64,000 nucleotides of DNA from Patescibacteria group bacterium (GTDB lineage Bacteria; Patescibacteriota; Microgenomatia; Daviesbacterales; UBA10151). The stretch covers positions 136,156 through 200,155 of the forward strand of contig CALRFD010000002.1 in assembly GCA_943356485.1 (NCBI GenBank), written 5' to 3'. The translations under genes were made by a program, and so were the position numbers. Position 1 is the first letter of the stretch; each line of letters begins with the position of its first letter. Below, in pieces: positions 53-13,053 of the stretch. The notes beneath the pieces were generated by a model, which saw only the letters and a program-made list of their open reading frames with translations, was not told the origin of the DNA and made no database searches.

Positions 53-367
53 ATGCGTTTTGTCGAAGGAGAGACCAATAGACAGAAAGTAAAGCAGGAA
101 AGCTGGGTTGATCGCTTAAATAGATCAGCTAGCAGATGCGCTATCTTAGCTATGGGCGCAACAGCAACTGGCGGTCTTTCTCTTTTCACTATAAATTACC
201 TATTAACCGGCCAAAATAAATTAGCGTTAGTCTCAGGGTTTTGTGCCTTAACCACAGCTTTCACTATGATAGTTACTCATTCTGAGTGGACTGAAGATGA
301 GGGAAAACAAACAAGCCCGGAACTTAATTCCCAACCAAAAACTCCACAACATCTCCGTCTTTCATAA
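53..367 (+). CDS. hypothetical small membrane protein (2 predicted TM helices); last ~14 codons lie antisense to a displaced copy of the ychF 3' end
   Basis: ORF track 104 aa; hydrophobic stretches AILAMGATATGGLSLFTINYLL and LVSGFCALTTAFTMIV; no recognisable motif. Confidence 0.3.
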   Translation: MRFVEGETNRQKVKQESWVDRLNRSASRCAILAMGATATGGLSLFTINYLLTGQNKLALVSGFCALTTAFTMIVTHSEWTEDEGKQTSPELNSQPKTPQHLRLS

Positions 368-375
368 CATATTCC
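324..375. repeat. displaced copy of the ychF 3' end (left copy of ~50-bp direct repeat)
   Basis: Minus-strand reading gives [16 protein letters not shown]; 29-bp core (337-365) identical to 1522-1550. Confidence 0.8.
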
Positions 376-410
376 TTAACGACCGAACTAAACGAGAAAA
401 AACATTCGGC

Positions 411-452
411 AATATTAGGCAACTTCTGGCAATATTAGGTAATATTTGGTAA
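411..452 (+). promoter_or_regulatory. tandem direct repeats upstream of fic (GGCAATATTAGG x2 plus related GGTAATAT units)
   Basis: tcggcaatattaggcaacttctggcaatattaggtaatatttggtaatatgc directly before the fic start. Confidence 0.4.
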
Positions 453-453
453 T

Positions 454-1512
454 ATGCTATTGTCATTGCGAAGCCATGAAGTGGCTGTGGCAATCTTGAT
501 TATGACGATACCTCCAAACTACACACTGACTCCTAAAATATCTCAGCTTTTGCAGTCAATAGAAGCTAGCCGGGAAGTAATCAACTCGATCACTATTCCT
601 CCTGAAATCGAACTAAATATTCGCCGGCAATCAACCTTAAGAAGCTCACTTTTTTCTGCCAGAATCGAAGGCAATGATTTAACGCTAAACGATTTAGATT
701 CTACCCCATCAAAAAACCGAAAAAAAATTGAAGTCTTTAATATTCTAAAAGCTTTAAACTGGATCGGTGAGAAATCTCTAAAAGATATCTCACTAAAGGA
801 TATCTTTCAAATCCACGCTCTAGTTTTAAACGGTCTAATAGAAGAACCAAACTTAGGCAAATTTAGATCCAAAGTCAGTGCAATTTTTAATTCCGCCGGA
901 ATCGCAGTTTATATGCCGCCACCACCTAAGCAGGTGCAACCGTTAATCGAAAAATTGTTTAAATTCATCAATACCTCAAACGAACAATTTGTTCCAATCA
1001 AAGCCGCTATGACTCATTATACATTAGAGAAAATTCATCCATTTTTAGATGGAAACGGCAGAGTTGGTAGATTATTTTTGCAAGCAGTTTTAAAAAAAGA
1101 CGGATACGACATGAAAGGATTACTTTCCCTGGAAGAGTATCTGGATAACCACCGTAGTGCATACTACTTTGCCCTGGAAGATCCGGAAAGAGATATGACT
1201 GGATTTATTGAGTTCATGCTGGAGGCGATTGCCGAAACTGCCCAAAAAGCCAAAGAGTTGGTTCTGCAAAAATCCTTCGACTACGCTGAGGACAAGGAAA
1301 AAACAAAAATAGAAGATTATTTACTGCCCCGAAGGGCAGAAATTTTAAATATAATTAAAGAACATGGGACGGTAAGTTTTGATATGCTACACCGCAGATT
1401 TATGGCGATAAACGAACGAACGCTGCGTTACGACCTTTTGCAGCTGCAAAAAAAGGGCTTGATTAGAAAAAGAGGCGCCACAAAAGGGGTATATTATGAA
1501 GCTATTCACTAA
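454..1512 (+). CDS. fic: Fic/Doc family protein (class II Fic AMPylase architecture: N-terminal inhibitory helix, Fic core, C-terminal winged-helix)
   Basis: Canonical Fic motif HPFLDGNGRVGR (HxFx[DE]GNGRxxR); inhibitory (S/T)xxxE(G/N) motif SARIEGN near N-terminus; C-terminal wHTH-like tail (RTLRYDLLQLQKKGLIRKRGATKGVYY). Confidence 0.9.
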   Translation: MLLSLRSHEVAVAILIMTIPPNYTLTPKISQLLQSIEASREVINSITIPPEIELNIRRQSTLRSSLFSARIEGNDLTLNDLDSTPSKNRKKIEVFNILKALNWIGEKSLKDISLKDIFQIHALVLNGLIEEPNLGKFRSKVSAIFNSAGIAVYMPPPPKQVQPLIEKLFKFINTSNEQFVPIKAAMTHYTLEKIHPFLDGNGRVGRLFLQAVLKKDGYDMKGLLSLEEYLDNHRSAYYFALEDPERDMTGFIEFMLEAIAETAQKAKELVLQKSFDYAEDKEKTKIEDYLLPRRAEILNIIKEHGTVSFDMLHRRFMAINERTLRYDLLQLQKKGLIRKRGATKGVYYEAIH

Positions 1513-1560
1513 CTCCCAATTAAAAACTCCACAACATCTCCGTCTTTCATGATATATTCT
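1509..1560. repeat. right copy of ~50-bp direct repeat = authentic 3' end of ychF
   Basis: Encodes [16 protein letters not shown] of ychF; 4 mismatches over 42 bp versus left copy. Confidence 0.8.
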
Positions 1561-2615
1561 TTTCCTTCTGTCCGAACCCAACCTTTTTTCTTAGCCTCTG
1601 CTAACGATCCTGCTTCAATTAACTGATCATAGGAAACAACCTGAGCCCTGATAAAATTTTTCTCAAAATCTGTGTGGATCACTCCTGCGGCTTGCGGGGC
1701 TTTGTAACCTACTTTAAAAGTCCAGGCCCGGACTTCCTTTTTGCCTGCAGTTAGAAATGAGGCTAGACCAAGTAAGTGATAGGCTTTTTTAATCAATCTT
1801 TCCAAACCTGTCTCCTCAATTCCAAGCTCTTTTAAATATTCCACTCTTTCTTCTTCTGACAAATCCACCAATTCTTCTTCAACCTTGGCGCAAATAACGA
1901 GTGCGTTTTCCTGACCACTGTCCCCTGTAACCTGTAACCTTGATTCCTCAACGTTATATACATACAATACAGGCTTTATAGACAAAAGCGGCAAAGTTAA
2001 AATCCAGTTTTGAATTCTTTCGTCTAATCCTTCTGAAGTTTTAATTAAGGAATCTCCGATATATTTACCCTTATCCAAATCCTCCTTAATCTTTTTTAAT
2101 ATCTCTAGCTTCTTTGGATCAAGAGAATCCTTAGAAAATCTCAATTCCTTTTCTGCAAAATCCACCAACTTAGTAATAGTTTCTATATCCGCCAGGATTA
2201 GCTCTGTTTCAATAGTTTCTCTATCTGATTTTGGATTCTCAGATCCTTCCCGAATAATATTACTATCTGAAAAATCTCTTAAAACATGAATTATGGCGTC
2301 AACTTCCCTAATATGCGATAAAAATTTATTACCTAACCCTGCCCCCGTAGATGCTCCTTTAACCAATCCTGCAATATCTACAAATTCGCAAACAGCCGGC
2401 ACAATTGGAGGAAGAGAATCCATTTTCTCCTCGTCCTTTGTTAACTCGGCCAACTCCGAAAGTCGAACATCAGGAACAGCCACTACCCCTGTATTTGGTT
2501 CAATGGTCGCAAAAGGATAATTGGCAGAAAGAGCCACTCTTTTTTTCAAAAGAGCATTAAATAACGTACTTTTTCCAACATTAGGCAAACCAATAATCCC
2601 AACCTTTAAACTCAT
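1509..2615 (-). CDS. ychF: ribosome-binding ATPase YchF (Obg-family GTPase)
   Basis: N-terminus [22 protein letters not shown] (G1 P-loop), YchF-like length 368 aa, C-terminal TGS-like end MKDGDVVEF. Confidence 0.9.
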
Positions 2616-2640
2616 TTTTTATTGACCCCCTATCAATTTT

Positions 2641-2662
2641 GTGATAAAAAATTATTTATCAC
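2641..2662. promoter_or_regulatory. perfect 8-bp inverted repeat GTGATAAA-N6-TTTATCAC in ychF upstream region (candidate operator)
   Basis: gtgataaaaaattatttatcac located 26-47 bp upstream of the ychF start codon (minus strand). Confidence 0.35.
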
Positions 2663-2822
2663 TAGGGAGAAACGAACATATGACTACGTGTTATATGCAA
2701 CGCCTCCCATTTTGATGCGTTCGTTATAAAGCCATTATGCCATGTATTCAGGCCTTAAACAATGAATCACTCCATACTTCTTATCTTACTGACACCCAGA
2801 CCTCAGCAAGTCTTGCACCATT

Positions 2823-3941
2823 TTATTCTACCTCAGCTCCTGCTCCTGCATAATATTTATAAAGATTTCTCTGAATAATTTCCCTGATGACTAAGTCAGG
2901 TTTTTCCTCCTCTACTTTAGTTTTTTCAAGTCCCCAAAGAGGATCATTATGAAGTATTATGTTGTCAAAGTGGTATTTTAGAAAGTACATGGCACCCCCA
3001 ATATATTCAGGCGGAGCCCCAACGAAATAAGAGTCTGCATAAATTAGTACCTTGTTAATCTTATTTATCCTACTTAAAACACCATCTTTCAGTGTAAAAT
3101 TTACGATCGGTTCCTTAGAATTATCAGAACCATGAATTAAAGATTTTAATCTATTTAAATCGTGTGCATTTGTAATTTGTGAATTTATTGAGATGTTAAA
3201 ATCTGATAGTTGCAAACTATCAATATTTGGAAAATGATCTTTCAGTCTACTTATTATTGCCTGATAACCAATAAACGCACCGAAAGAATTCCAATGTGCA
3301 TCTTCTTTCCAATACAATGGTATATCAGTATTCTTTTTCGTATCGACAATTTGGGAGCCTAAGTACAAAACAGGAATTTCTCTTTTTTTTAAAGCGTTTA
3401 GAATTAGTGAGAGTTGAATATTCGAATTTATAAAATTTGGATATGGAAAGTATTCAGGATAAACTATCTCTTTATCCGGAACCACCACGAATAGATAAGG
3501 TATTCTTCTCCCATCCAAGTATTTTTTTTCATCTAAAAAATTGTCTCCTATCCATGATAACAACTTGTTTGATAAGGTAATGTGGTGATAATAATACTTG
3601 TAGGCTGGAGCCATAAAACGCGCTTCATTATGAAAATACCAACCATTAGCAGTTCTAATCACAGCAGCTACCGGACTTTTTTTAAATAATTCAAATTCAA
3701 TTGTAGCATCAAGAATAAGCAAAATATTTCTAAAACCAAAGTTATCATTGTAAAATTGTTCAAATTTTTTAGGAAATTCATCGATTTTCATCTTATCATT
3801 AATTACCGGAAACTGCGCCAAACGCCGCCACTCTGTATTATCTATCTTTGAAGTCATGCCTAAAAATAAGCCGATAAATGATAGACTAAGAAAAAAAATA
3901 AACACTGCAGTTAAAATTATATTGAAAAGATTTTTTTTCAT
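2823..3941 (-). CDS. DHHW/AlgJ-like SGNH-type partner of MBOAT acyltransferase (membrane-anchored, extracytoplasmic)
   Basis: N-terminal TM anchor; DxHW-like motif WKEDAHWNSFG resembling AlgJ/AlgX/DHHW family catalytic motif; immediately downstream of an MBOAT gene in the same orientation. Confidence 0.5.
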   Translation of the reverse strand: MKKNLFNIILTAVFIFFLSLSFIGLFLGMTSKIDNTEWRRLAQFPVINDKMKIDEFPKKFEQFYNDNFGFRNILLILDATIEFELFKKSPVAAVIRTANGWYFHNEARFMAPAYKYYYHHITLSNKLLSWIGDNFLDEKKYLDGRRIPYLFVVVPDKEIVYPEYFPYPNFINSNIQLSLILNALKKREIPVLYLGSQIVDTKKNTDIPLYWKEDAHWNSFGAFIGYQAIISRLKDHFPNIDSLQLSDFNISINSQITNAHDLNRLKSLIHGSDNSKEPIVNFTLKDGVLSRINKINKVLIYADSYFVGAPPEYIGGAMYFLKYHFDNIILHNDPLWGLEKTKVEEEKPDLVIREIIQRNLYKYYAGAGAEVE

Positions 3942-3945
3942 TTAC

Positions 3946-5391
3946 TTAAAATCTAAAATATAAAAAAGGATTATATGTTTTTGAAGCAACACTAATCGCT
4001 ATCAAAAAAAGCAATCCGGTTAATGCCGCCAATTTTAATAATTTAAACCTTACTTCAAAATTACTTCTAAATTTTCTAAAATAACTAGATACTGGAATTG
4101 AACAAATAACTCCTACTATCATTACTAAAATTATGTCCATCTGAAGAAAATATCCAGCAGGTTGAAAGATTATTCCTTCTTTTTTTAGTCCGAAAAGAAC
4201 CTGCAGATAGGAGAAAGCCTTGGTTAAATTCTCTGATCTGAAAAGTACCCAACCTGATATAAGGGCAAGCAAAGTATAGAGATGTTTAAAAGGAAGCCAT
4301 AAACTCTTAAATAAAACTCCGTTATTAAACCTTTCCAAACTTAAAAAAACTGCTTGTAGAATACCCCAAGCAATAAAATTCCAACTGGCTCCATGCCAAA
4401 CCCCAACTAAAATAAAGACCGTCCAAAGATTAAAATATCTTTTCAAAGCAGATACCCTACTTCCTCCCAGCGGAATATACAAATAATCCCTAAACCAACT
4501 TGATAATGTGATATGCCACCTTCTCCAAAACTCAGTAATAGAGGTTGAAATGTATGGATAATTAAAGTTTTCGGGAAAGCTAAAACCAAACATCCGGGCG
4601 AGTCCGATCGCCATATCAGAGTAACCTGAAAAGTCAAAATAGATCTGCAAGGTAAAACAAATAATTCCTACCCAGGCAACCGAAGCTCCTAAATGTTCAG
4701 TCGGGATAGAGAAAATCTCATTTACAATTGGGTTAAGTTTATCGGCAATTAATACTTTTTTAGCCAGACCAGAAATAAATCTTTCAACCCCAAATACAAA
4801 ATCATCAAAATAAATAACTCTTTTTTTAAGTTGCCCGGCAATTGAGTGATACCTGACTATTGGACCTGCTAAAAGATGCGGAAAGAATAAAAAATACAAA
4901 AGAAGACTGAAAGGATTTTTTTGAGCTTCTGCTTTTTTCCTAAAGATATCTACGTTATATGAAATCGCATGGAAGGTAAAAAATGAAATAGCCAAAGGCA
5001 GCCATATTTTAGGAACCGAAAGATTAAAATCATAACCGGGAACTGTGGTAAGATTTCGGATCAGGAAAGTAAAAAAGGTATTAAAATTTTGTATCAAAAA
5101 AACCCAATATTTATAATAAATCAAAAAGCCCAAATTTAGCAGAATTGAAAGAAATAAAATTTTTTTTGCTATTGATTTTTTCTTCAAGTATTTTTGGATC
5201 AACAACCCAAGAAAAAAGTTAAAAGCTACAGCAACCAGTAAGAAAGTAATGAAATCTGGTTCGCCCCAAAAGTAAAATACCAAACTGGCAATTATTAAAC
5301 TTAAGTTAGGGAATTTTCTGCCTATTGTAAAGTAAAAAAGTAGTAAAATCGGCAAAAAAAGAAAGAGGAAAACCGGAGAGCTGAACAACAT
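3946..5391 (-). CDS. membrane-bound O-acyltransferase (MBOAT; AlgI/DltB/PatA-like)
   Basis: Multi-pass membrane protein with MBOAT hallmark WRRWHITLSSWFRDYLYIPLGGSR and conserved His (WHGASWNF). Confidence 0.85.
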   Translation of the reverse strand: MLFSSPVFLFLFLPILLLFYFTIGRKFPNLSLIIASLVFYFWGEPDFITFLLVAVAFNFFLGLLIQKYLKKKSIAKKILFLSILLNLGFLIYYKYWVFLIQNFNTFFTFLIRNLTTVPGYDFNLSVPKIWLPLAISFFTFHAISYNVDIFRKKAEAQKNPFSLLLYFLFFPHLLAGPIVRYHSIAGQLKKRVIYFDDFVFGVERFISGLAKKVLIADKLNPIVNEIFSIPTEHLGASVAWVGIICFTLQIYFDFSGYSDMAIGLARMFGFSFPENFNYPYISTSITEFWRRWHITLSSWFRDYLYIPLGGSRVSALKRYFNLWTVFILVGVWHGASWNFIAWGILQAVFLSLERFNNGVLFKSLWLPFKHLYTLLALISGWVLFRSENLTKAFSYLQVLFGLKKEGIIFQPAGYFLQMDIILVMIVGVICSIPVSSYFRKFRSNFEVRFKLLKLAALTGLLFLIAISVASKTYNPFLYFRF

Positions 5392-7050: not shown

Positions 7051-8418
7051 TTACTTCTTTTTTCCTGGTTTTTTTGCAGAAAATTTTCTTTTCAGGAAAA
7101 ATGCCACCCCACCGGAAATTATTGCTAATACCAAACTAACCACAGTAATCTTTGTAACTGAAAGTTTTTGGGCGATTGTCACTGCTCCTGGCTTGTTACC
7201 ATTCGGAGTAATTGAGGTTACCTTTCCATCATTGGTTTTCACTTCTACCTTACCTTCATAAACAGCTACTGTAGTTTGATTTTTATTCTTGTCGTAAGAA
7301 ACCAAATAGTGGGTTTGTACAGAAAGGATTGTTCCGTTTGGTGTTTTGATACCATCATATGAACTATCGGAAATACCGGTGAGTTTTTTAACAACCTCTA
7401 CTTCCCCCATTTCCAAAAACGGCAAGTCATTCTCGTCTTTTCCCGGGATTTTAAGCACTGCTTGATTACTTGAACCAGGCCGTACTTCGTAAAAATTCTG
7501 GTTATTTTTGTCAGTCAACCGCATACGTTCTATTACTTGTATAGTCTTGCCTTGTTCTATACTTTCATGAGGGATATATCCCGGCAAAAAATCCCACGGT
7601 TTTCCTTCGCTATCTGTAGCAATTGAGGGCTCGGGAACTACCATCGGTATTTCTTTTGCCCCAGTTAAAAATTCCCCGGATTCTACCAGATTATTAATAT
7701 TAAAATTTTTACGAATATCCAGGATGGCCTGAATATTACGCCAGATTTCAATCGGGTTAACTTTAAAAAGATTAATTTGATCGGTTTTACTACTGGAATT
7801 ATTTCCGGAAGTAGCTGCTGCTTTATTTGTCTTCTGCTGGGAAACTACTGGAGAAGAACCTGATCTTGATGATGAACCTGTGTTAAAGAGTTTTACATCA
7901 TCCGCTGTTGCTGAAGAGGTGCATGAATTGTAGTCAAAATCAAAAATATAATCAGGCGGAACTTTACCTGTCCGGCGAATCCCTTCATCTATGGAGGCAG
8001 AACACCAAGCACCACCGTTTTGAGATTGCCATGAGAGATCCGGACAATTTTGGGCAGCGCCAAGCATAGAAAGTTTTTTCCACTCATCACAAGTTAAATG
8101 CCCAGGTGTTTGAGGTTCCAGCATCCATGTTTTCCTGTCAACACCCAGACATGCATCCAGTGTATCTTGTGCCTGAATACATTTATCTACAGAATCGTTG
8201 CAAGCTTTATCACAAACAGGGTTTTTATTATTACCCTGACATTCATTGCATACTGTTACGTCTTTTTCACAAGTAGAGACCCAATCCTTATACTTCTGCC
8301 TGCAATCAGCAGACTGGGCATAAGCGTTTGAAAAATTTGCCAAAAGCAGAAAGGCAAAAAAAGTTACTAAAATTCTGGGCATTAACTTAAATTTAGCTGA
8401 AAAAATTTGACAAGTCAA
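7051..8418 (-). CDS. cysteine-rich secreted protein with C-terminal TM anchor and basic tail
   Basis: N-terminal signal peptide (FFAFLLLANFSNAYA), ~20 Cys in first 150 aa, Ser-rich linker, C-terminal TM (ITVVSLVLAIISGGVAFFL) followed by KRKFSAKKPGKKK. Confidence 0.45.
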   Translation of the reverse strand: MTCQIFSAKFKLMPRILVTFFAFLLLANFSNAYAQSADCRQKYKDWVSTCEKDVTVCNECQGNNKNPVCDKACNDSVDKCIQAQDTLDACLGVDRKTWMLEPQTPGHLTCDEWKKLSMLGAAQNCPDLSWQSQNGGAWCSASIDEGIRRTGKVPPDYIFDFDYNSCTSSATADDVKLFNTGSSSRSGSSPVVSQQKTNKAAATSGNNSSSKTDQINLFKVNPIEIWRNIQAILDIRKNFNINNLVESGEFLTGAKEIPMVVPEPSIATDSEGKPWDFLPGYIPHESIEQGKTIQVIERMRLTDKNNQNFYEVRPGSSNQAVLKIPGKDENDLPFLEMGEVEVVKKLTGISDSSYDGIKTPNGTILSVQTHYLVSYDKNKNQTTVAVYEGKVEVKTNDGKVTSITPNGNKPGAVTIAQKLSVTKITVVSLVLAIISGGVAFFLKRKFSAKKPGKKK

Positions 8419-8442
8419 GAAATTTAATTTAATGTAAAATTA

Positions 8443-9189
8443 ATGCCCACTTCACAAAAGTTCAGTGTAAACAATCAAAGAGGAGTCATACCTCTTATTG
8501 TAATTTTTATGGCCCTGGTGGTAATTGGTGGAGGTGCGGGTGTCATAGGTGTTAAAAGCGGATTATTAAAACTGGTTGAGGCTCCTTCTAATCCGGGATC
8601 TCCAATTGGACCATATGATCGTTTACCTCCTAAAAATACATCCGCACCTACCCCTCAACCTAATAATAAAGTTTCTTTTAACGGAGATATTCCCAAACCC
8701 TCCCTTAGCCCGCAAATTGCCCAGAAAAAAATAGATAGTAGGTGGCAAGCCTATACCAGCTCTAAATTTGGTTACTCTGTTTCCTATCCATCAGACTGGC
8801 AGCTGCTGGATGGCAATACTGATACTTCCCGCCAAATCATGGTTAAAGATAATATAAACTTAGGTTACGTTGATATTCAGGCATTTTTTGATAAAACTCT
8901 TGGAGAAGCGGGGAAATTACAAGAAGCCATTAATACCCTGGAGCAAAAATTTAGAAGTGATCCAGGTTTGAAAGTTGACAAATTTAAATCATCAGTTGAG
9001 GGCAAGGTAGGCGGATATATTACCACCGGTGAACAGACTATAAACAATGAGCAATATAATTTTGAAAATAGGGGGCTTCTTGGAACTAACGGTAAAGTCT
9101 TACTTTTCCATGGTGCATATAAAAAAACAGCTCCCACAGATTATTTGCAAAAAATTGAAAAAATAATTACCAGTTTTAAAACAGATTAA
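8443..9189 (+). CDS. membrane-anchored extracytoplasmic protein, paralog family member 1
   Basis: N-terminal TM, Pro-rich linker, shared motif SSKFGYSVSYPSDWQL and GGYITTGE with the next two paralogs. Confidence 0.45.
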   Translation: MPTSQKFSVNNQRGVIPLIVIFMALVVIGGGAGVIGVKSGLLKLVEAPSNPGSPIGPYDRLPPKNTSAPTPQPNNKVSFNGDIPKPSLSPQIAQKKIDSRWQAYTSSKFGYSVSYPSDWQLLDGNTDTSRQIMVKDNINLGYVDIQAFFDKTLGEAGKLQEAINTLEQKFRSDPGLKVDKFKSSVEGKVGGYITTGEQTINNEQYNFENRGLLGTNGKVLLFHGAYKKTAPTDYLQKIEKIITSFKTD

Positions 9190-9195
9190 TTTGAA

Positions 9196-9822
9196 ATGTA
9201 TATTTACAACAAAAAACACTTAAACCAGCAAGGCGCTATTCCACCCATGATCCTGGGTGTTATTGGCATACTTGTTATCAGTGGAATTTATTTTGCCAGC
9301 CAAAAACCAAAACCGTCCCAACCTCCCCCTGCTACAGTAAAAACCCAAACCACACCCACACCTGCTCCTGCATGGGAAACATATAAAGACAGTAAATATA
9401 ACTACGAGATAAAATATCCTAAAGACTGGGCTGTAGAAAACTTACCATCCAAAGACAGCAGTTCGATCAGGTTAGCAGATAACCAAAAAACAGCATTTGT
9501 TTTAATTGACTCAATTATTGGTCCCAGTTTAGAAAAAACAGGCGAAAAGGAAAAAGTAATTGACCTTCTGGAAGGAAAACTGAAAACAAATACTCATCTA
9601 AAGATTAACTCGTTCGCCCGGTCTAATGAAACCGGTATAGGCGGATATCTAGCAACAGGTGAAGAAACATATGACAGCAAAACTGTGCTTTTTGAAGAAA
9701 GGTTTATAGTCGCTAAAAACGGCAGGGGGTTACGTATGCATAGTATCTATGCCTCAGATTCAGCAAAAATCAATAAGCCTATTACACAAGAGATCATGGG
9801 AAGTTATAAATCAATTAAGTAA
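9196..9822 (+). CDS. membrane-anchored extracytoplasmic protein, paralog family member 2
   Basis: N-terminal TM, Pro/Thr linker, motif DSKYNYEIKYPKDWAV and GGYLATGE. Confidence 0.45.
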   Translation: MYIYNKKHLNQQGAIPPMILGVIGILVISGIYFASQKPKPSQPPPATVKTQTTPTPAPAWETYKDSKYNYEIKYPKDWAVENLPSKDSSSIRLADNQKTAFVLIDSIIGPSLEKTGEKEKVIDLLEGKLKTNTHLKINSFARSNETGIGGYLATGEETYDSKTVLFEERFIVAKNGRGLRMHSIYASDSAKINKPITQEIMGSYKSIK

Positions 9823-9837
9823 GGAGGTGAATAAAAA

Positions 9838-10092
9838 ATGGGAACAATATTAACCTGGGTTTTTAACTTTTTTCTGGGAGTCTTTGGCACAGCCCTTTTG
9901 GCATCCCAAATCTCAACCGGCAGGTCTATTGGTATGGTTGATGGTAACTTGGATATTCATTTAGGTTTACAAAATCTGGGACTGTTGCTTTTTGTAGTAT
10001 TTTTAGTTGTCTACTTTTGGGGAGCAAAAAAAACCTTAGGGAAAACAGTTGGCGGGTTATTAACTGATAAGATACTGGGAAAGAAAAAGTAA
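9838..10092 (+). CDS. small integral membrane protein
   Basis: 84 aa, two hydrophobic helices, RBS-like aaggagg 8 bp upstream. Confidence 0.35.
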   Translation: MGTILTWVFNFFLGVFGTALLASQISTGRSIGMVDGNLDIHLGLQNLGLLLFVVFLVVYFWGAKKTLGKTVGGLLTDKILGKKK

Positions 10093-10095
10093 TGC

Positions 10096-10785
10096 TTGAC
10101 AACTAATTTAATATGGAGGAATATTATATTAATGCCTAAATCTACTGCTCAACAGGGTATTATTGATCCTAAAATAATTATTGGTGGTGTGATAGCTTTA
10201 GTGGTTATCTTTTTTATTGCCACTGGCAGTTTTAAATTTAGCGCATCAATTAAAAAGCCAGATCAAACTGCTTCCTCAAATGCTACCCAAGAGAGTAGAC
10301 AAACAGAACCAGCACCACAAGCTAAACCAAAAGCTTACCAGAGTGAAAAATATGCATTTAATTTGGAGTACCCTGCAAGCTGGAGTCTAAAAGAAAATCC
10401 CAGTGCCGCATTTGTAGCGGGGTTCTTTTCGCCTGAAGAATCCAACAGCGACGGCTATAGGGAAAATTTACTGGTTAGAGTAGCTGATATTTCAAAGCAA
10501 CCTAAAATGACACTTCAGGAGGCAGCTGACCTTTGGGAAAACGATACAAAGAAAGAAGAGGGCAGCAACTTTAATGTAACAGAGCGAAAATCTTCCAGCC
10601 TGGCAGGAGAAAGCGCTAAAGACATAATATTTGATATCAAGACCAAAGAAGTTGATGGACACGGCATGATTAGAATTATTTTGAAAAATAACAAAGCCTA
10701 TATTTTCCAATTTAATGCCCTGAAAACAACCTATGATAGATACTTATCCGATATAGAAACGATACTTGCTTCTGTTAAATTCTAA
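10096..10785 (+). CDS. membrane-anchored extracytoplasmic protein, paralog family member 3
   Basis: N-terminal TM, Pro/Ala linker, motif SEKYAFNLEYPASWSL. Confidence 0.45.
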   Translation: MTTNLIWRNIILMPKSTAQQGIIDPKIIIGGVIALVVIFFIATGSFKFSASIKKPDQTASSNATQESRQTEPAPQAKPKAYQSEKYAFNLEYPASWSLKENPSAAFVAGFFSPEESNSDGYRENLLVRVADISKQPKMTLQEAADLWENDTKKEEGSNFNVTERKSSSLAGESAKDIIFDIKTKEVDGHGMIRIILKNNKAYIFQFNALKTTYDRYLSDIETILASVKF

Positions 10786-10788
10786 GCT

Positions 10789-11223
10789 GTGTCATATATT
10801 TTTCAAAACCCGCTGATCCTGGTCACTATTTTAACTATTCTACTCTCCCCTTTTATATTAAAACTGGCATCAAATCAAGGTAAAAAAACTAAACACAACC
10901 TAAAATCTTTCTTTATTATCATACTTTCTGCCCAAATTATTTTGGGATATATTGCTGGTGTAAAATTTTTCTTAGCTATATCTTTTTTGCAGGTTATTTT
11001 TTTGATTTCAAATAAATCATTTAATATTCTGGTAGTTATTTTAAATTTTATAAACTCTATTTTAATTTTTGTGGAAATGATTAAGTTAAGCAATAATCTA
11101 GGTTATCAGATTGTCAGCTTACCAGCTATTGCAGCAGTTTTTCTTGTATTGACCGGCAATGTATTAGGACTTGCATACATTAATAAAGATAAAAATTTAC
11201 TGAAAAAATATTTTAAAGCATGA
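10789..11223 (+). CDS. integral membrane protein (hypothetical)
   Basis: 144 aa, 4 predicted TM helices, no motif. Confidence 0.35.
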   Translation: MSYIFQNPLILVTILTILLSPFILKLASNQGKKTKHNLKSFFIIILSAQIILGYIAGVKFFLAISFLQVIFLISNKSFNILVVILNFINSILIFVEMIKLSNNLGYQIVSLPAIAAVFLVLTGNVLGLAYINKDKNLLKKYFKA

Positions 11224-11522
11224 AAATTATTATTTTAGTCTTTACAGCTTTGATAATTAGCGGATTTTTAATTTACAAAAATATACCTGAAATCGGTTTA
11301 ACCGGTATGAGTAAAAAACAAGCTATAGCAAACGTTAAAAAGCTTCCTGAAGTACAACAATATTTAAAAGATGTACCAAAGGGTAAAGTGGAGGTAGATA
11401 ATGAAGTTGAGGGTCAATACAATGTCCATGTTTATGAAGTTAAAAATGGCCATACCGCCACATTTAATTGGTATAGAGTCAGCATCAAGGATGGCAAGGC
11501 AGAACCACAGTTTACCCAATAA
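11220..11522 (+). CDS. PepSY-like domain membrane-anchored protein
   Basis: N-terminal TM then pattern KGKVEVDNEVEGQYNVHVYEVKNGH reminiscent of PepSY domains. Confidence 0.35.
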   Translation: MKIIILVFTALIISGFLIYKNIPEIGLTGMSKKQAIANVKKLPEVQQYLKDVPKGKVEVDNEVEGQYNVHVYEVKNGHTATFNWYRVSIKDGKAEPQFTQ

Positions 11523-11530
11523 AGATTCCA

Positions 11531-11896
11531 ATGCTCCAAAATTCTGAAGAAATAGTAGCGATATATAAAAAAATTATTGACCCGAAATTTAAAGATTGGG
11601 TTATTTTTAGACACGGAACCTGTGTAATTATCTACAAATCTCAGGGTGATTTAAAAAGTGAGGCAATCGAAACACTAAAAAAATATGGCGCTGTTTATCC
11701 TGGTTCATCTTCTGCAGATTTTACTGTGATGAAAGTTGACTCTGGTTGGATAGTAGCAGGAGATCAACCGGGTATTTTAAATTACGTATCAGAAAATGAA
11801 GGTAGCGGAAAAGAAGATTATGAAATCGGCTTGATCGGAAGAAATAAAAAAGAACAGGATAGTAATGAGCTAAAAATATTTTATACTAATTCCTAA
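11531..11896 (+). CDS. hypothetical protein
   Basis: 121-aa ORF in same-strand run; no motif. Confidence 0.3.
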   Translation: MLQNSEEIVAIYKKIIDPKFKDWVIFRHGTCVIIYKSQGDLKSEAIETLKKYGAVYPGSSSADFTVMKVDSGWIVAGDQPGILNYVSENEGSGKEDYEIGLIGRNKKEQDSNELKIFYTNS

Positions 11897-11938
11897 TTTA
11901 GCCTAATAGGCATTATTTATACTTTATCACTAAAAGCT

Positions 11939-12208
11939 CTATTTATGGACTTTGTTCCAAACATTAGCAAAAATATAACCTGCCCCATACCCTCCTACAA
12001 AAGTTATTACTACTAATATTCCAGCTTTCATCACATCAAAGCCAGTCACCTGATATGGGTTAGCTAACATATGTATGGAAAAAATAAAGTCCAAAAGGCT
12101 CTGGGCTAAACCTGCTGCTACTAAAACAGACCAAACAAGATGCCATCCACCCAGCAGCACACCCAAAGTTAGCGCCACTTTACTTGAGTTTAATTTCATT
12201 CTATTCAC
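11939..12208 (-). CDS. small membrane protein (hypothetical)
   Basis: 89 aa, 3 hydrophobic helices. Confidence 0.3.
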   Translation of the reverse strand: MNRMKLNSSKVALTLGVLLGGWHLVWSVLVAAGLAQSLLDFIFSIHMLANPYQVTGFDVMKAGILVVITFVGGYGAGYIFANVWNKVHK

Positions 12209-12280
12209 CTCCTCCCACTTTCAGTATACCATCTTAATCCATTCACTTCTCAAAACTTTTTTGATATAATAATTTTTATT

Positions 12281-12679
12281 ATGAAAAGCAGTCCTGTTGT
12301 CCACTTTGAAATGCCAGCCAAAGACAGAAAAAGAACTTCTGAATTTTACTCCAAAGTTTTCGGTTGGACTATGCAGCAAATGGGGTCGGAAATGGGAAAT
12401 TATTTAATAGCCCAAACAACAGACACAGATCAGCAGGGAATGGTTCAAACTAAAGGCGCCATCAATGGCGGATTTTTTGACTTTAAAGATGAAGACGGTT
12501 TCCGGGTTCCCCATGTAGTTATTTCTGTAGAAGATATAGCCAAAAGCATCGAAGATGTTAAATCCTCCGGCGGCCAGATTAGTGGAGAAATTATGGATAT
12601 TCCGGGAGTGGGAAAATATATCTCATTCAAAGATTCTGAAGATAATATTGTTGGAATGCTTCAGCCAGCCCAGATGTAA
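12281..12679 (+). CDS. VOC/glyoxalase-bleomycin resistance family protein
   Basis: ~130 aa, N-terminal VHFEMPAKDRKRTSEFYSKVFGW typical of VOC (glyoxalase I-like) fold. Confidence 0.6.
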   Translation: MKSSPVVHFEMPAKDRKRTSEFYSKVFGWTMQQMGSEMGNYLIAQTTDTDQQGMVQTKGAINGGFFDFKDEDGFRVPHVVISVEDIAKSIEDVKSSGGQISGEIMDIPGVGKYISFKDSEDNIVGMLQPAQM

Positions 12680-12804
12680 GCTATAGAAAAGGCAAATATT
12701 AGAACTTTTGAGGAATATATTCGGCATTAACCGTTAACCAAACTCTCATTATATTCTCGGCAGAATTGCAAAAAATGGCAATGGCTTTAAAATTCTTTTG
12801 AATT

Positions 12805-13053
12805 TTAAAATTTTAACAACTCAAGGGCTTTAAAAACTAAAAGTGCCGGCCAAGCTAGAGCTTTAATAATACCTACAATTGCATCCTGAAAATTAGTTAA
12901 ATGAGGAAGAAAATAAAATAACGCTCCTATTACCCCCAATCCATAAATATGTCCACTGCTGCCTCTATTCCAAGGCTTTGCATATTTCCACCATCTTTTA
13001 TCTCCATTATTGCAGTCACATTCACAATTCTTATCCATATTATTTTCTTTCAA
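12805..13053 (-). CDS. small Cys-rich membrane protein (hypothetical)
   Basis: 82 aa; CECDC N-terminal cluster then two hydrophobic helices. Confidence 0.3.
   Translation of the reverse strand: MKENNMDKNCECDCNNGDKRWWKYAKPWNRGSSGHIYGLGVIGALFYFLPHLTNFQDAIVGIIKALAWPALLVFKALELLKF

Follow-up and report, generated by a model that had tools for sequence, protein, structure and literature searches.

How does a single gene come to be enclosed between two copies of the end of a housekeeping gene? The question is raised by the first lines of a 64-kb stretch of DNA (the window, taken at its full length) from a Microgenomates bacterium of the candidate phyla radiation (CPR), Daviesbacteria-like by its best matches. 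Here, a gene for a Fic protein (positions 502-1512, plus strand, 336 aa) converges on ychF (1509-2615, minus strand, 368 aa) and is bounded on its upstream side by a displaced, non-functional copy of the last 17 ychF codons and stop (324-377, minus strand), which we call the pseudo-tail. An initial annotation, made from the sequence alone, took this arrangement for a site-specific insertion into the 3' end of a protein-coding gene. Our analysis leads to a related reading, which we rate slightly above an even chance, namely, that the pseudo-tail is an att-type scar: a single crossover in the ychF tail would have added a Fic unit carrying its own mimic of that tail, the recombinase having acted in trans or been lost, or host recombination having done the work.

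The two ychF tails and the unit between them

The duplication itself, as described in the initial annotation, is confirmed. The repeat search yielded one direct-repeat family, 325-377 versus 1510-1562, with 47 of 53 nt identical (89%) and a start-to-start spacing of 1185 nt. Within it, a 29-nt core, AAAAACTCCACAACATCTCCGTCTTTCAT, matches exactly at 337-365, the putative crossover or identity segment of the pseudo-tail, and at 1522-1550, inside the working tail, and nowhere else in the window; 100 dinucleotide shuffles contained no match to it, even with 3 mismatches allowed. Translation of the minus strand identifies 324-374 as the pseudo-tail and 1509-1559 as the genuine C-terminus of ychF, the functional tail spanning 1509-1562. 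In a permissive alignment, weak homology continues for ~17 nt past a 4-nt frame-breaking indel, to ~394. The target gene is intact, with both expected domains (PF01926 and PF06071) and the lineage-typical C-terminus EFLIGS*. Two further statements of the annotation are borne out by the open reading frames (ORFs): only Fic and its upstream region separate the copies, and the Fic stop (1510-1512) overlaps the ychF stop (1509-1511), so that the two ORFs share 4 nt.

Given that the source is a metagenome-assembled genome, a chimeric join through a short repeat could be envisaged. The segment 300-1600 is, however, base-identical in two further, independently produced assemblies (Logan ERR5863124 and ENA ERZ27280321) and is thus not an assembly artefact; moreover, the two tail copies differ, so that no repeat has been collapsed. 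We regard this explanation as effectively refuted and its probability as practically negligible.

The distribution of differences between the copies is informative. All 6 mismatches fall outside the central 29 nt, within 24 flanking nucleotides; a match run of at least 29 nt would arise with a probability of 0.02-0.04 from 6-7 randomly placed differences, and the core/flank split gives a Fisher p of 0.006, with boundaries chosen post hoc and with both statistics resting on very few sites (~55 nt). Eight relatives differ from the window core at 4-6 synonymous sites, at which the two window copies are identical to each other. The differences between pseudo-tail and working tail comprise one stop codon exchanged for another, one silent change and three conservative ones. 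When 54 nt are compared, the pseudo-tail agrees with its own ychF in 47 positions and with the ychF of the relatives L102, L107 and L101 in 45, 44 and 43, respectively, and the functional tails of sister genomes match each other at 44-48 of 54. The pseudo-tail is therefore no closer to its own ychF than sister tails are to one another and resembles another, recently functional allele. From its sequence, it looks like the end of such an allele joined within the identity segment, in an attL/attR pattern, and not like a local copy in decay. The arm of the working tail next to the stop, GGGAGTTAG (GGGAG[TC]TAG), is common to the window, L102, L107 and L109, all of which have the 4-nt overlap; it is absent from Fic-less genes and from those which Fic abuts in some other way, and the arm of L110 differs as well. 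The pseudo-tail ends in TAA, as does ychF in the Fic-less L100 and L101. This is a weak, post hoc hint that Fic carries along the final ~12 nt of ychF.

The enclosed gene encodes a Fic domain (PF02661, E 4e-22) and a C-terminal winged helix-turn-helix (wHTH) domain. Its active loop, HPFLDGNGRVGR, fits the motif HxFx(D/E)GNGRxxR, and the inhibitory motif (S/T)xxxE(G/N) is present N-terminal to the Fic core as S-ARI-E-G (...LFSARIEGNDL...), in agreement with the earlier description of a complete active motif preceded by an SxxxEG helix. The PADLOC profile of SoFic (PDLC03963) matches with an E value of 5.5e-57, residues 23-330 aligning with profile positions 33-349 of 361, and the protein most resembles PDB 4rgl, FICD and SoFic. 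The likeness to these class II Fic AMPylases extends over the Fic motif, the inhibitory helix motif and the C-terminal domain. The cargo would thus belong to the class II Fic AMPylases, which inhibit themselves, and within these to the anti-phage SoFic type, family membership being the ground on which we infer a function in defence; SoFic reportedly triggers abortive infection through AMPylation (PMC12249575). Unlike the E. coli locus, for which a small downstream antitoxin gene (AS1) was reported, the unit described here has no room for such a gene because the Fic stop abuts ychF.

The longest Fic ORF begins at 454. The true start is the ATG at 502, because homologues begin at residue 17; the same start is indicated by a conserved operator-like element upstream (397-460, plus strand). 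This element contains three direct repeats, GGYAATATTAGGY, with a 20-nt period (408-420, 428-440 and 448-460), and ~60 nt of it are conserved at the nucleotide level upstream of Fic in L098, L106, L090, L105, L109 and L110. L090 retains the GGYAATATTAGGY element though its Fic lies outside the ychF-rpsF gap. It is therefore a probable promoter/operator that travels with Fic, and the three 20-nt-spaced repeats together with the C-terminal wHTH suggest that Fic is probably autoregulated. A scan for consensus promoters and terminators found nothing above shuffle expectation, the sole feature being a weak hairpin (473-491); it sits in an extra 44 nt of operator-to-start sequence that other lineages lack.

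Fic and YchF in related genomes

The order ychF->rpsF-ssb-rpsR is common to Bacillus and many Patescibacteria and is an ancestral synteny, so that the Fic unit interrupts an old, conserved neighbourhood. In the window, orf104 (53-367, plus strand; an orphan of 104 aa and two-transmembrane appearance) lies between the scar and rpsF, which itself is off the left window edge. The last 14 codons of orf104 are antisense to the pseudo-tail; hence, if this is a real gene, its C-terminus was made by the scar. A search of 5.8 billion proteins for orf104 homologues, which could have revealed an empty site with ychF next to orf104, returned only orf104 itself.

The gap between ychF and rpsF is a variable recombination hotspot, with contents that differ in every relative. 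In the genomes nearest to the window by YchF (L100, 89% identical; L104, 87%; L101, 86%), the gap holds no Fic gene and is occupied by other, mutually different genes. Across 10 genomes, the identity of two Fic proteins shows no correlation with that of the corresponding YchF proteins (r = -0.09, Mantel p 0.70), with 4 of the 10 Fic-YchF pairings provisional, having been made indirectly. The discordance is apparent in single comparisons as well: the window and L102 are 85% identical in YchF and 68% in Fic, and L105 and L107 are 83% identical in Fic and 68% in YchF. The window Fic groups with those of L105, L106, L107, L109 and L098 (74-87%), unlike its flanking ychF and rpsF, which group with L100-L102. 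As judged from these sequences, the history of Fic differs from that of its flanks. The working ychF tail is 88% identical over 82 nt to that of L102, a member of the host clade, compared with 80-83% to the clade of the Fic donor; the boundary of the exchange is therefore at the very end of ychF.

Fic is not a sporadic newcomer at this site. At least 10 related genomes have it next to the end of ychF; the two stops usually overlap by the same 4 nt, and a second tail is mostly absent. One outcome that the initial annotation set against insertion, conservation of Fic at this locus throughout the lineage, is therefore partly observed. Fic is convergent with ychF in L102/103, L107/108, L109, L110-113, L106, L114/115 and L092, the overlap being longer in L106 and L114/115; in L105, two genes separate Fic from ychF. 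These two (L105 2362-5042) encode a HisKA kinase and a Big_13 protein and are inserted with no copy of the tail. Between Fic and rpsF, L102 (8169-9062) and L105 (373-1266) share a gene for a 297-aa acyltransferase-like protein, the two products being 70% identical. An IS1595-family transposase gene is located 2.7 kb upstream of ychF in L102/L103 (2342-3268) and shows no link to the Fic unit.

The arrangement seen in the window recurs in a second lineage. L110, L112 and L113, as well as L111 with a different allele, carry a second ychF tail just upstream of the Fic operator, and the order of parts is the same: pseudo-tail, a spacer of ~45 nt, operator, Fic, a 4-nt stop overlap and ychF. In the window and in L110-L113 alike, ~45 nt separate the Met codon of the tail from the first operator repeat; YchF and Fic are 77% and 65% identical, respectively, between the two lineages. 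The homology to ychF ends, at its distal side, ~63-66 nt before the stop in L110-L113 and ~73 nt before it in the window, and end points so alike in both lineages speak against joins made illegitimately and by accident. The pseudo-tail of L111 translates as a good YchF C-terminus (21 residues) and is identical to the resident tail at 38 of 54 nt. The preserved coding character of the pseudo-tails argues against a very old, neutral scar.

L110 and L111 differ from each other in a single patch: 18 differences fall within the ~55-nt pseudo-tail (L110 4893-4950) and none elsewhere over ~8.9 kb, the working tails being identical. Either the patch was replaced non-reciprocally or the population is polymorphic exactly at the scar; an origin resembling that of diversity-generating retroelements was ruled out, given that the differences are not adenine-specific. 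Finally, genes of the host type remain between the pseudo-tail and rpsF in both lineages (orf104 in the window; genes for 266-aa and 307-aa proteins in L110-L113), as predicted for addition by a single crossover. Replacement by a double crossover would not leave them in place.

A proposed insertion scar and its rivals

The duplication has the make-up of an att-type scar at the 3' end of a protein gene: the core is identical, the arms have diverged, a stop codon is kept and the target ORF is intact. Under the reading that we favour, the segment 325-377 would be the product of a single reciprocal crossover within the ~30 conserved nucleotides at the end of ychF. The unit that came in would have consisted of a mimic of the ychF 3' end of ~65-75 nt, its stop overlapping that of Fic, followed by Fic and the operator/promoter repeats, most simply as a circle of ~1.2 kb. 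After a Campbell-type insertion, the working end of ychF would be composed of the host 5' part, the core and the 3' arm of the element, and the old host end, fused to the 5' arm of the element, would have become the pseudo-tail beyond Fic, beside the former downstream DNA (orf104 and rpsF). The unit encodes no recombinase, so that the enzyme would have acted in trans or been lost, unless host homologous recombination joined the molecules through their short identity. Conjectured parts of this model are the circular intermediate, the position of the crossover, the enzyme involved and the roles in defence and autoregulation.

A bolder version of this reading, to which we give a low probability, is that the ~1.2-kb unit is a minimal recombinase-less mobile cassette that circularizes and re-inserts at the ychF 3' end through a recombinase supplied in trans or host recombination. 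It would then belong to a wider set of gene-tail cassettes, each with a single cargo, by which defence islets are assembled downstream of ychF across phyla, with SoFic in the window and L110, AbiE in a Paceibacterota genome and DUF5677 in Microbacterium. Such units would be functional analogues of integron cassettes or pdif modules, their attachment site being where the coding sequence of a universal gene ends. That the same single-gene unit is found in two lineages with Fic proteins 65% identical hints at a mobile unit, which these sequences fit better than two parallel decays.

The proposal of insertion into the 3' end, as put forward in the initial annotation, thus draws support from the scar anatomy, the incongruent history of Fic, the Fic-less relatives, the second lineage and the integrases found at ychF elsewhere (see below), but several observations weigh against it. 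No recombinase gene lies between the repeats, where, as already noted in the annotation, Fic is the only gene; none is found by precomputed Pfam matches within ~6.7 kb beyond the left window edge on the same contig, where the annotation had suggested looking for an integrase; and none was detected in the 64-kb window by a crude tblastn screen with XerD, lambda Int and Hin queries. Neither a circular junction nor an isogenic empty site was seen in the assembled sequences. The composition and GC content of the Fic segment are not atypical, and the repeat statistics, as noted above, draw on few sites. Furthermore, L102, L106, L107, L109 and L114 have Fic at the ychF end without a pseudo-tail; as this holds for most genomes with Fic at this position, most Fic turnover may be ordinary double-crossover exchange. 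Fic homologues that are ~63% identical occur in other Microgenomates (L084-L091) in unrelated contexts and with no ychF tail. Alternatively, Fic could be old at this locus, with the scar kept or regenerated in two lineages only.

This last possibility can be cast as a single ancient integration, after which Fic would have been vertically resident in the ychF-rpsF gap since the ancestor of the clade and, in this genome, not recently mobile, the scar being maintained by gene conversion in a few lineages and deleted elsewhere. We consider it unlikely, although it accounts for the presence of Fic at the ychF end in at least 10 genomes, mostly with an identical overlap, and for the similar junction between pseudo-tail and operator in both lineages that have one. 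The exact core could, under this scenario, be a conversion tract from the working tail 1.1 kb away, and the patch that distinguishes L110 from L111, confined as it is to the pseudo-tail, indicates that non-reciprocal events occur there. What speaks against vertical residence is that the histories of Fic and YchF are incongruent and that the closest relatives by ychF have no Fic. In addition, a neutral scar of 55-70 nt should be unrecognizable at 65-75% protein divergence, and yet the copies in L111 and in the window are in frame and changed conservatively; with only 38 of 54 nt shared with its resident tail, the L111 copy has not been refreshed from it.

Homology-facilitated illegitimate recombination, in which a gap allele is replaced by DNA of a relative, with one end joined homologously in ychF and the other illegitimately ~70 nt before the ychF stop of the recipient, would duplicate the tail by accident and yield exactly the structure in the window, with no need for a recombinase and in a gap that is in any case a hotspot with different contents in every relative. 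Accidental junctions should vary from event to event, however, whereas in the two lineages, with their different Fic alleles, the pseudo-tail stops within ~10 nt of the same ychF position, and the operator follows after ~45 nt in both. The affinity of the working tail to L102 instead of the donor clade leaves no long donor tract, and an exact core between diverged arms is not predicted; we therefore find this explanation improbable. More improbable still is a local duplication unrelated to Fic, such as a tandem tail-plus-Fic duplication in which the second Fic was later lost, or replication slippage. Although both copies share an exact 29-mer that is not seen in relatives, as such a duplication would have it, two steps are needed, and the differences, clustered in the arms, conservative and in frame with the stop kept, are unlike random decay. 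Besides, the same anatomy recurs in L110-L113 with a very different pseudo-tail sequence and, in other phyla, with other cargo and with integrases. Of these scenarios, the att-type scar remains the one that we prefer; should the ancient scar prove to be the correct alternative instead, the locus would be an ordinary relic.

The ychF end as an attachment site and comparison with known systems

The 3' end of ychF is a genuine integrase target in other bacteria. Extra copies of the ychF tail (19-140 nt) are present in 10 of 80 species-level ychF loci from several phyla; all those of at least 19 nt are downstream and in direct orientation, and 6 of the 10 end at the stop or within a few nucleotides of it. 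In Actinobacteria, tyrosine integrases (PF00589) directly follow the ychF stop in convergent orientation in L035 (7112-8368), L065 (7204-7836) and L020 (7204-7668), all three on the minus strand, and in L035 a 19-nt repeat of the tail at 10662-10680 closes an element of 3.6 kb. Such tyrosine-integrase elements appear to insert at this site in the manner proposed for the Fic unit. Pipolins with large serine recombinases (LSR) have been reported at ychF in Actinobacteria as well (PMC11551731). Integrase-less segments between tail copies are also found: L010 of Paceibacterota (2266-3606, 1.3 kb) carries AbiEi/AbiEii; L058 of Microbacterium has two, 7075-8393 (1.3 kb) and 8394-9863, with DUF5677; and those of L022 (Naasia; 7072-9573 and 9574-12891) include, in this order, an ECF sigma factor, NERD and NYN proteins and a 140-nt partial ychF. 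A pneumococcal prophage was discarded as a precedent for attB at the ychF 3' end, its site being upstream of ychF. A tRNA or tmRNA target was likewise set aside, since no such gene is present in L002, L110, L010, L058 or L035, the target being a protein-coding gene. Among viruses, neither the Fic protein nor a degenerate ychF-tail pattern matched the IMG/VR contigs, and the actinobacterial YchF tail matched GenBank phages only as whole ychF genes, probably in host-contaminated records, and these matches are uninformative. The one weak match in the tblastn screen of the window for recombinases proved to be a GH25 lysozyme.

The tyrosine-integrase elements and LSR-pipolins share the target gene with the window unit, and L035 has, in addition, the same end, a tail repeat and a convergent first gene. 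These elements encode their own recombinase, unlike the window unit, which has Fic where L035 has int. The closest known category is that of cis-mobilizable elements (CIMEs), integrase-less, att-flanked derivatives of integrative and conjugative or integrative and mobilizable elements (ICEs and IMEs), which have been described in streptococci at the 3' ends of fda, rpsI, rpmG and rplL, with sizes down to 1.2 kb (PMC7563491). As in CIMEs, direct repeats from the 3' end of a housekeeping gene flank the cargo, the target ORF is intact, and genes for recombination and transfer are absent. Unlike the streptococcal CIMEs, the unit resides in a Microgenomates bacterium and its target is ychF, and neither an ICE or IME nor a matching integrase turned up in this genome or its clade: none of the ~25 CPR ychF loci examined holds an ICE or IME that shares the att site, and integrase-bearing ychF elements were seen in Actinobacteria only. 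The derivation from an ICE or IME that defines CIMEs is not apparent here.

Small units that rely on a recombinase encoded elsewhere are also known among Xer-dependent integrative mobile elements (IMEX), pdif modules and integron cassettes, which are ~1 kb in size, with 1-2 genes, sites of ~30 nt and toxin, defence or resistance cargo. Unlike in those systems, the sites here are direct repeats of coding sequence, and inspection of the core revealed no dif-like dyad; a hairpin resembling attC is missing as well. An integron attC site was rejected on folding grounds: folding energies in the tail regions are 0 to -3 kcal/mol, with z scores of +0.3 to +1.1 relative to shuffles.

Mobile elements and the gain of defence genes in CPR bacteria are poorly known; the genomes are tiny, and recognizable integrases are few. 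If the att-type reading is correct, the conserved end of ychF would be a landing pad for single defence or toxin genes, in units too small for a recombinase of their own, and the essential-operon neighbourhood ychF-rpsF-ssb-rpsR would stay undisturbed. The signature is simple to search for: ychF followed, downstream and in the same direction, by another in-frame copy of its final 20-70 nt. Among the 80 species-level loci sampled, it marked about one genome in nine, in several phyla.

The surroundings of the unit are known beyond the window as well, given that the same contig in another assembly reaches ~6.7 kb further to the left. There, rpsF, ssb and rpsR follow orf104 and are succeeded by two genes without a Pfam match and by genes for a CtpB-like protease, an HtrA-like protease and a methyltransferase. 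On the other side, directly upstream of ychF, the window contains an ordinary pair of genes on the minus strand (2823-5391), for an AlgX-like SGNH protein and an AlgI-like MBOAT O-acyltransferase.

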